From: a virus
Taxonomy: Duplodnaviria > Caudoviricetes
Direction: 5' to 3' (one strand)
Virus record (IMG/VR): IMGVR_UViG_3300021431_000113
Span: 1-64,000 of that record
Length of the DNA stretch: 64,000 nt
This document shows positions 8 to 2,471 of this stretch, one piece after another; the stretch's first letter is position 1, and each line of letters opens with the position of its first letter. The translations under genes were made by a program, and so were the position numbers. The notes below the pieces were generated by a model. That model saw nothing but the letters and a program-made list of their open reading frames with translations, made no database searches and was not told the DNA's origin.

Positions 8-81
8 TTGGATAAGTGGGATTCGAACCCACATCCTTCTGCACTTATAGCAGCGCTTTCTCCTCATTAAGCTATTATCCG
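8..81 (-). tRNA. atypical tRNA-like gene, isotype undetermined (loop TATAAGT, nominal TAA)
   Basis: Acceptor CGGATAA/TTATCCA (C1:A72 mismatch), D stem GCTT/AAGC, T arm GTGGG-TTCGAAT-CCCAC; anticodon stem only 4 bp (CTGC/GCAG). Confidence 0.6.
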
Positions 82-881: not shown

Positions 882-963
882 ATATTCCTACTCACCATAT
901 ATTGAATTCGTCCGGACTCGTCCAACCTTTTGGGAGGGCTATCATATGGCTTTTGGAAATAAG

Positions 964-1128: not shown

Positions 1129-1137
1129 ATAATAAAG

Positions 1138-1209
1138 TGGGAAGTATAGGAACTGCCCCTATACGCCCTGGGCTTCAACCAAGCGCTCTTCTAATTGAGC
1201 TAACTTCCC
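1138..1209 (-). tRNA. tRNA-Phe(GAA) with non-canonical T loop
   Basis: GGGAAGT/ACTTCCC, anticodon arm CTTGG-TTGAAGC-CCAGG, T arm ATAGG-GGCAGTT-CCTAT. Confidence 0.85.
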
Positions 1210-1220
1210 ATATAATACTT

Positions 1221-1381
1221 ATTCTTGGGTGGGGATTTACACCCCACATAAATACCAGTTCCCATATAGCTTTTACTACTATATCTCAATATTCTCGTCA
1301 AATATACGCCTATCTACGGCTCAGAACTTGTTTCCATATTTCAGGACTACACTATGCGTCTACTTATTCCGCCACCAAGAA
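1221..1381 (-). ncRNA. 161-nt tRNA-like RNA with large structured insert in place of the anticodon arm
   Basis: Acceptor TTCTTGG/CCAAGAA, D arm TGGCGGAATAAGTAGACGC, T arm GTGGGG-TGTAAAT-CCCCAC; about 105 nt between the D and T arms. Confidence 0.75.
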
Positions 1382-1384
1382 CAA

Positions 1385-1704
1385 TGGACCTGGCGAGAGT
1401 CGAACTCGCGTCTCAAAATACTATCTTACAATCCTTTTACGCAATAGGCTTTAGGGAGCCACCCAACATAAGGTAATAAGGTTTACCTACTCCACCAGGC
1501 GAAAGTGTGTCCGCCGCACTCAACTGTTTCAGTTTTCGATCCTCAAAGTTTACAGAAAACAGATTACTCTACACTTCTTTTGGAACCTAATAGGATTAGG
1601 CAGCCATTCTATATTCGTTTGCGTTTATTTTTAAAGGTGACTTAACGATGTCGGTCGTGCGAGATTATAAGCTTCATACCCTGATCGATACCCCTTACAA
1701 GCCC
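1385..1704 (-). ncRNA. ssrA: tmRNA, tag peptide ANEYRMAA*
   Basis: 5' GGGCTTG pairs with 3' CAGGTCC-A (G3:U70); T arm GCGAG-TTCGACT-CTCGC; resume context AAATAAAC-GCA, tag ORF 1622..1596 ends GCT GCC TAA. Confidence 0.93.
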
Positions 1705-2082: not shown

Positions 2083-2221
2083 AGGTGTAAGGGTGTCACT
2101 AAGCAAAACTTCTCCCTGTTTTACCCCTTACTATTTACACCGACTGTCGCTATCAATGTAAACTAGGACATAAGTTATTCTCAAGTCAGGCTACGACATT
2201 AATACCTTTCTTGACGCTTGT

Positions 2222-2294
2222 AAGCACCGACGGGATTCGAACCCATGTTACCACCGTTAAAGGGCAGTGTCTTAGACCACTTGACTACGGTGCA
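2222..2294 (-). tRNA. tRNA with TTA (ochre) anticodon in a tRNA-Glu body
   Basis: GTCAAGTGGTCTAAGACACTGCC-CTTTAAC-GGTGGTAAC is a Glu-type body whose usual loop CTTTCAC reads CTTTAAC here. Confidence 0.88.
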
Positions 2295-2471
2295 TAAACT
2301 AGAATATTATCGCGAAATTATCTAGGAGATGATTAACCGATACCTCACAAACATATCTTTTTACTCAAAAGACCAGAGGGGTTCTTCGTTAACCCATAAC
2401 GGACTGCTCTTAGCTCACAAAGTTTAGCAGCCAAAACTCGGATACTTTCACAGCGTTTTCTTGCTGGTACG

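Follow-up and report, generated by a model that had tools for sequence, protein, structure and literature searches.

Introduction

The tRNA clusters of phages are usually read as codon-usage or anti-defence supplements, and small stable RNAs are encoded in some of them as well. The cluster of phage T5 contains RNA1 (rna1, NC_005859 30501-30644), which is annotated as a 'tRNA-like stable RNA with unknown functions', and in T4 the species 1 and species 2 RNAs (rnaC and rnaD; NC_000866 70908-71171) stand at the end of the tRNA cluster. The tRNA-like domain of tmRNA (RF00023) is an anticodon-less tRNA frame which encloses a large structured insert, and the tRNA that served as its model has a synthetase which does not read the anticodon. 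In engineered tRNA scaffolds and in RNase P-processed phage RNAs (C4 of P1 and CI of P4) a functional RNA is placed in, or attached to, a tRNA-like fold, where it is matured and protected by tRNA enzymes.

Here we analyse a 161-nt gene located next to the tmRNA gene in the tRNA array of a rumen phage recorded in IMG/VR. Judged by its sequence, it is a member of a large family of tRNA-Leu-shaped phage RNAs without an anticodon arm.

Results

The element and its neighbours

The DNA analysed, called the window below, is the initial 64 kb of an IMG/VR virus record whose full length is 76 kb. In its PHROG matches (terminase and portal) and its two giant ORFs the phage looks crAss-like. Its tRNA array occupies positions 8-2542 on the minus strand and takes in both a tmRNA gene (1385-1704, minus strand; ARAGORN, and Rfam RF00023 with 66.4 bits) and the element, a tRNA-Leu-shaped RNA gene at 1221-1381 (minus strand) delimited by its sequence and by a full-length match to the covariance model R1. 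The element is numbered 5' to 3' on the minus strand, nt 1 being window position 1381 and nt 161 position 1221. The tmRNA gene ends 3 nt upstream of it, and tRNA-Phe(GAA) (1137-1209, minus strand; ARAGORN and Rfam) starts 11 nt downstream. An earlier sequence-only reading had described intact acceptor, D and T arms directly downstream of the tmRNA, and this was borne out by the sequence, by covariation and by the 3-nt spacing. Searches with the D-arm motif and with R1 located one copy of the element in the window.

When relatives of the phage were sought through the neighbouring proteins one was found, and its contig ends before the array. The search by the tmRNA 3' end returned unrelated phages only, and three of these matches resemble two-piece tmRNA genes by eye. 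In about ten relatives (L034, L037-L041, L044, L045, L047, L048) the match to the terminase large subunit is stretched by ~0.4-0.9 kb, which suggests that introns or inteins are present within this gene in this phage group.

The array also contains a tRNA with the anticodon UUA (ARAGORN; 2220-2295, minus strand), which would read the stop codon UAA, and relatives of the window phage have CUA (amber) suppressor-type tRNAs as well. Recoding of TAA, suggested by the UUA tRNA, was considered for an ORF pair at 7594-9249 with in-frame TAAs between two separate PHROG domains, and gained no support: in this pair, the only one tested, the in-frame TAAs sit in promoter-like sequence. The sole other 'tRNA-Leu(taa)' of the window (8-81, minus strand) is a 74-nt class I form; position 33 in its loop, UAUAAGU, is A and its acceptor stem opens with a C-A pair, which is odd for a bacterial-type leucine tRNA.

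Family size and distribution

Neither default ARAGORN nor the Rfam tRNA model (E up to 10) called the element. It was matched over its full length by R1 with 64.8 bits (E 5e-14), and R1 had been built from 24 other phage copies (seed alignment A2), the window sequence being kept out of the seed; a covariance model made from homologues, the check named in the sequence-only reading, accordingly recognises the element. With R1 family members score 42-85 bits, canonical tRNA-Leu 31-41 and T5 RNA1 25.4.

Members were collected by a T-arm pattern match, after which acceptor pairing and a D arm were required. In this way at least 190 distinct members of 50-301 nt (median 133) were obtained from IMG/VR, metagenomes and bacterial genomes, and they span crAss-like rumen phages, gut phages and putative Bacillota prophages. 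BLAST against 30 related phage records revealed the same D and T arms around unrelated middles of differing length. In GTDB species genomes 75 of the 120 matches listed were true members; by record title the bacterial-genome members belong mostly to Bacillota (Lactobacillaceae, Lachnospiraceae, Oscillospiraceae, Enterococcus), and they are taken to be in putative prophages. Additionally, unannotated members were recognized in the cultured L. plantarum phages ATCC 8014-B2, H1-Guo, phiJL-1, Lpa804, P1 and P2, and in Hujiaoplasma phage zrk29-2. Small Lactobacillus phages have the element by itself, close to the terminase genes.

A search of four members against Rfam 15 (E up to 0.5) gave no match, and no description of an anticodon-less tRNA-Leu-shell phage RNA family was found in the literature searched. 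Since the family is absent from Rfam 15 and is unannotated even in cultured Lactobacillus phages, it appears to be missed by annotation pipelines. BLAST against GenBank phages returned no match for the window region or for a 113-nt gut member, and the exact T-arm plus acceptor pattern of the window element had no match in IMG/VR.

The 3'-terminal CCA is encoded neither by the window element nor by any of 118 members, whose discriminator base is A (70 cases), U (35), C (9) or G (4). When five complete related genomes were searched with R1, G017, G019 and G026 had one member each, G013 had canonical tRNA-Leu only, and G005 had neither; carriage by three of the five indicates that the gene is accessory and dispensable. 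In a further IMG/VR record (L184, 1808-2606, minus strand) a ROOL RNA (RF03087, 122.8 bits) and a class II tRNA are closely followed by an 84-nt minimal member.

The tRNA-Leu-like shell

The acceptor stem is formed by UUCUUGG (nt 1-7; 1375-1381, minus strand), which pairs with 1222-1228, that is, with CCAAGAA (nt 154-160); this 3' strand and the discriminator U (nt 161) together occupy 1221-1228 (minus strand). As in the rest of the family, the stem has 7 bp of free sequence apart from an invariant G7-C pair, and it is followed by UG. The D arm (nt 10-26; 1356-1372, minus strand) is of the class II tRNA-Leu type, GCG and CGC enclosing a loop with AAUAAGUAGA, and corresponds to the family's Leu-type form GCGG-AAUAGGUAGA-CGC. 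The 18-nt Leu-type D-arm motif GGCGGAATAGGTAGACGC has one match in the window with 1 mismatch, at a chance expectation of 0.01. The T arm (nt 135-153; 1229-1247, minus strand) consists of the 6-bp stem GUGGGG/CCCCAC and the loop UGUAAAU. It conforms to the family's 6-bp T stem G-U-N-N-G-G with the loop UGYAAAU, abutting the acceptor stem, and its loop departs from the canonical UUCRANY.

The helices could be evaluated by comparison of five homologues, the window copy included. Six of the seven acceptor pairs change on both sides with every cell still paired, the D stem contains one compensatory pair, and the T stem, which is 100% paired, contains two. Across the family the T stem has two free pairs, which are formed in 178 of 181 members and each of which shows at least four pair types. 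Furthermore, two loop bases, the fifth of the D loop (AAUA-G-G) and the third of the T loop (UG-C-AAAU), vary together with a Fisher p of 1e-5, calculated on related sequences; the pair is G-C in 136 members, A-U in 7, G.U in 5 and U-A in G026, and this covariation points to a tRNA-type elbow. As far as the alignments can tell, it was shown that the acceptor, D and T helices and the D-loop/T-loop contact are under selection for pairing. Considering the D-arm motif, the R1 score and the compensatory changes, the element is not a product of chance. The term 'tRNA mimic', used in the sequence-only reading, is apt as a description: the shell is selected and tRNA-Leu-like, its D-loop/T-loop contact covaries and it has no anticodon arm.

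In some family members (L238, L220, L261, L224, L162, L160, L248, L237, L206, L222, L198) the D loop is the site of a second insertion (AAUAG / ACAC...GUGGUAAAG... / UAGACGC), in which a recurring motif is often seen. In one record which has the same middle module as the window (L282, 2237-2406, minus strand) 9 nt are inserted inside the T loop (UG-ACAGAAAUA-CAAAU), which makes this loop a third insertion-tolerant site besides the anticodon region and the D loop.

Conservation and probable exchange of the middle module

The place of the anticodon arm is taken by a middle module of 108 nt (nt 27-134; 1248-1355, minus strand). The sequence-only reading had estimated the insert between the D and T arms at about 105 nt; the insert and the lack of an anticodon arm were confirmed. 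The module has ~93-95% identity in four independent homologues (L242, L282, L285, L290), which were found by a metagenome scan keyed on two insert loops and by an IMG/VR scan. The same scans also returned L283, which is the same DNA as the window, and L292, a truncated copy. In the homologues the insert is both conserved and structured, as the sequence-only reading supposed.

The acceptor 5' strands of the window and the four homologues are UUCUUGG, AAUACAG, AAGAUAG, GCUCUUG and AAUUAGG; all of them differ and all are paired. The gene neighbours of the module also differ among the homologues, and in the 10-12 kb around L242 and L285 no protein similarity to the window was shared. Conversely, 189 inserts fell into 128 clusters, and a single acceptor can be combined with many of them (UGAGCGG with 11 insert clusters, GUGCUUG with 8). 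The same middle in different shells and one acceptor with many inserts indicate that shell and middle have separate histories, and we infer from these sequences that the two are probably mixed by recombination in the conserved arms.

The 108-nt middle has no Rfam match. In a search for antisense complementarity in the phage's own 76-kb genome the best match was a 12-mer, which is the level of shuffled inserts. The short frame AUG-GAA-ACA... at nt 45 was discarded as an ORF, its start codon being lost in L290. In L292 (776-1336) the module copy breaks off after nt ~121, a small ORF that has a Shine-Dalgarno sequence comes next, and at 1205-1336 of the same record there is a second, different family member (R1 41.5 bits).

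Fold of the middle

In the five-sequence alignment RNAalifold predicted two sub-domains, with 99.5% of cells paired overall. The 5' one (1299-1346, minus strand) comprises a hairpin (nt 36-38/47-49) and a stem (nt 52-56/79-83) capped by GCC-GUAGAUA-GGC (nt 62-74); its pairs are all invariant in the five homologues, thus they are compatible with the fold and offer no variation to judge by. The other, supported by covariation as well, is a long bent hairpin beside the T arm (1250-1294, minus strand), in which a 9-bp stem (nt 88-96/124-132) carries the cap AUAUAGU-AGUAAAA-GCUAUAU (nt 98-118). Two compensatory double changes occur in the 9-bp stem (A89-U131 to G-C and U91-A129 to C-G), the pair 104-112 is seen as UG, CG and UA, and 97.8-100% of cells are paired in this hairpin. 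Two nucleotides separate the long stem from the T stem; by inspection, a helix is found in the corresponding position beside the T arm in other family members too, and in having such a helix within a variable middle without an anticodon arm the element agrees with its family.

The sequence-only reading had drawn the insert as a nested cloverleaf. Its GCC/GGC and ATATAG/CTATAT hairpins exist in both folds, but its outer stem AAATAT/GTATTT failed, only 70% of cells being paired in the homologues. The AGTTCT/GGAACT stem and the ATATT/AATAT hairpin can form, although they show mismatches and no covariation, and they compete with the 9-bp stem. Given a different outer stem the nested cloverleaf reaches 98.6% paired cells, yet without double changes and with three mismatched cells. 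The calculated energies are -37.7 to -41.5 kcal/mol for the RNAalifold fold vs -29.7 to -38.8 for the cloverleaf. On this comparison of five close sequences we favour, with moderate confidence, the long-helix fold over the nested cloverleaf. Minimum free energy folding of the element gave z = -1.78, with 10 of 200 shuffles equally stable, which is weak evidence when taken alone.

RNA-library contigs and the intron question

Parts of the tRNA array were present in metatranscriptome runs. One contig of 448 nt (X1) corresponds to window 1214-1661 with 0 differences, the element being continuous with the tmRNA, and two others (X2, 1214-1446; X3, 1317-1593) also cover the element; the three contigs come from two studies. 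It should be emphasized that such contigs, in which gaps over canonical tRNAs carry no meaning, show presence in RNA libraries and not ends, strand or level, and that a contig joining the element to the tmRNA is equally expected from a precursor or from contaminating DNA. In X1-X3 no splice joint and no skipped part was found within 1221-1381, contigs being assemblies that drop rare forms. An element that is unspliced in the RNA-library contigs makes an intron unlikely.

The sequence-only reading had mentioned an unrecognised intron type as the alternative to a mimic, while regarding the insert as too short for a group I intron. The judgement about length proved right. The best intron candidate is delivered by relaxed ARAGORN, which proposes tRNA-Leu(UAA) with a 73-nt intron after U33, an anticodon stem AUAGU/GCUAU and the loop GU-UAAAA joined at the dash. 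Removal of nt 34-106, or equivalently of nt 27-99 because AUAGU is repeated (nt 27-31 and 100-104), would give an 88-nt class II tRNA. The 5' exon of this candidate ends in U and the insert in G, its anticodon stem and a variable-arm stem (nt 117-121/130-134) are pairable in all homologues (alignment A1, inspection), and the window's other 'tRNA-Leu(taa)' at 8-81 is the odd 74-nt class I form; the AUAGU/GCUAU stem, however, is always pairable because AUAGU occurs twice. The candidate of 73 nt is far below any group I intron, a group I core (~200 nt or more, P3-P9) was not found in it, and no intron model matched. The joined form is missing from the three covering RNA-library runs, in each homologue the intron-bearing fold is less stable than the alternatives by 7-15 kcal/mol, and the unusual T arm would persist in the spliced tRNA-Leu.

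The family argues in the same direction, since in most members an anticodon arm cannot form. In the 84-nt minimal member the D and T arms are separated only by a 9-nt linker and a single hairpin, and such members, having no anticodon arm to restore, count against an intron. In the window element no canonical cloverleaf (RF00005) with a 5-bp anticodon stem, a 7-nt loop and U33 was found; UAA occurs in a single loop of the element, AGUAAAA, in which position 33 is G. Hairpins with anticodon-like loops occurred in 15 of 116 inserts vs 18 in shuffled inserts; anticodon-like 'GAC' loops, which had been seen by eye in several inserts, were likewise not enriched over shuffled sequence and were dropped. 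Taken together, an intron-bearing tRNA-Leu(UAA) is in our judgement barely credible, and an anticodon-less RNA is preferred.

Two other observations were made in the same contigs. In X2 a 14-nt loose end (CACCAAGAACATTG, plus strand) is joined at 1214 and agrees, but for one difference, with the 5' start region of the element; either a circular junction or a tandem copy present in a related strain could account for it. The 81-nt spacer 882-962 (minus strand), which lies exactly between tRNA-Tyr (963-1048) and tRNA-Cys (812-881), was present in X1 and X3 contigs (two studies) with a joint that goes back 81 nt, from 962 to 882, as expected of a circular or tandemly joined excised spacer. This spacer carries GAGUAGGAAUAU, resembling the GUAGGAAU motif of several family inserts; it had no Rfam match and no unusual fold (z = -0.57).

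Discussion

We propose that the element specifies a stable RNA which has a class II tRNA-Leu frame but does not decode, which is matured like a tRNA and whose shell carries an exchangeable module; this proposal has, in our estimation, an even chance of being correct. The element would be co-transcribed with the rest of the array, excised by RNase P and the enzymes of tRNA 3'-end maturation, and then provided with CCA. Excision by tRNA enzymes is suggested by the acceptor ends, which abut the neighbouring tmRNA and tRNA. The shell might serve as a processing and stabilising chassis, similarly to the engineered tRNA scaffolds, while the middle module would be the acting part, probably binding a host or phage protein or RNA, and the conserved D and T arms could double as homology arms for module exchange between phages. 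The occurrence of the module in five different acceptor contexts with unrelated flanks speaks for the chassis, and T5 RNA1, an annotated tRNA-like stable RNA with a Leu-type D arm, provides a precedent. A bolder version is a modular platform, in which a tRNA-Leu chassis is seen by host maturation and possibly charging enzymes, hundreds of modules are swapped at the D and T arms in an integron-like manner, and every module acts as an effector in its own right, such as one that inhibits, or serves as a decoy for, a host defence or a tRNA-handling enzyme; we consider it possible and hold it only tentatively.

The strong conservation of the shell loops (UGYAAAU, AAUAGGUAGA) suggests that the shell itself is recognised by something specific, and a decoy or a synthetase ligand would account for it no less well than a passive chassis. 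In a decoy or sponge the shell would be the active part and would soak up a host factor for class II tRNAs (for instance a defence nuclease that cleaves tRNA, RNase P, the CCA enzyme or LeuRS), the changing middle reflecting an arms race or simply little constraint. Across unrelated phages the shell loops are indeed conserved to a much greater extent than a passive scaffold would require, and the family is accessory and patchy like anti-defence genes. Also in favour, defence systems are described which cut the variable loop of class II tRNA-Tyr and are countered by phage tRNA copies through supplement or decoy (PMC13096335), and Schlafen-like bacterial defences cleave tRNA (PMC13434031). Nevertheless the middle is ~93-95% conserved across five shells, loops and linkers included, which is unexpected if it is unconstrained, and no defence system targeting tRNA-Leu was identified in this analysis; we therefore regard the decoy as rather unlikely.

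The shell could also be imagined as a leucylated, non-ribosomal tRNA-like RNA, in which the needs of LeuRS are kept, those of the ribosome are lost, and the charged RNA serves a tRNA-dependent transferase or titrates LeuRS. LeuRS ignores the anticodon, and the bacterial tRNA-Leu identity set consists of U8, an A14/A15-type D loop, the D-loop GG, the elbow pair and the discriminator A. The conserved parts of the shell coincide with this set, A being the commonest discriminator (70 of 118), and the 13-bp acceptor/T helix (7+6) together with G at loop position 2 would probably disfavour normal use in elongation. On the other hand the window copy has discriminator U, 48 of 118 members are without A, CCA is not encoded and a transferase gene is not consistently nearby, thus leucylation appears improbable. 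Even less credit can be given to a decaying tRNA-Leu paralogue or a purely selfish recombination cassette without function for the phage: the patchiness among relatives and the existence of the truncated copy L292 would be expected of either, but every shell helix is maintained by compensatory changes, the module is conserved across unrelated contexts and hundreds of intact members exist.

The family shows that phage tRNA clusters also hold many genes which are probably tRNA-like to the processing machinery yet unable to decode. Should the shell prove to be a natural 'tRNA scaffold' whose RNA effectors are exchangeable, it would give access to a class of phage-host RNA interactions, and ready-made, evolution-tested scaffolds for RNA expression in bacteria would become available as well. 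The question can be tested in culturable carriers, for instance the L. plantarum phages ATCC 8014-B2, phiJL-1 and H1-Guo.

Comparison with known systems

Among described RNAs T5 RNA1 comes closest. Like the element it lies in a phage tRNA cluster, its 7-position acceptor stem is followed by UG, its D arm is of the class II Leu type (CCGG-AAUUGGUAGA-CGG), and ~85 nt without an anticodon arm precede the T arm. In contrast to the family it has a canonical 5-bp T stem with the loop UUCAACU, and its R1 score of 25.4 bits is below that of canonical tRNA-Leu; it is best viewed as the closest described analogue or a distant relative, and not as a demonstrated member.

With class II tRNA-Leu(UAA) (RF00005), which relatives carry in canonical form in the same arrays, the element shares a nearly identical D arm and the 7-bp acceptor stem, and where that tRNA has its long variable arm a helix abuts the T arm. 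The element differs from it in the lack of an anticodon arm and in the 6-bp T stem, and the family in the T loop UGYAAAU, with G in place of U55. The anticodon-less frame around a large structured insert, with a model tRNA whose synthetase ignores the anticodon, is common to the element and the tmRNA tRNA-like domain; however, pair 3-70 of the element is C-G and not G3:U70, it has no tag reading frame and no pseudoknot series, and the ARAGORN tmRNA search of the element was negative even at a relaxed threshold. The T4 species 1 and 2 RNAs have only the location in common with it, lacking a Leu-type D arm, the family T arm and an R1 match. Finally, the engineered scaffolds are artificial, and P1 C4 and P4 CI are single-phage antisense RNAs with known targets, whereas the cargo of the family described here is natural and diverse.
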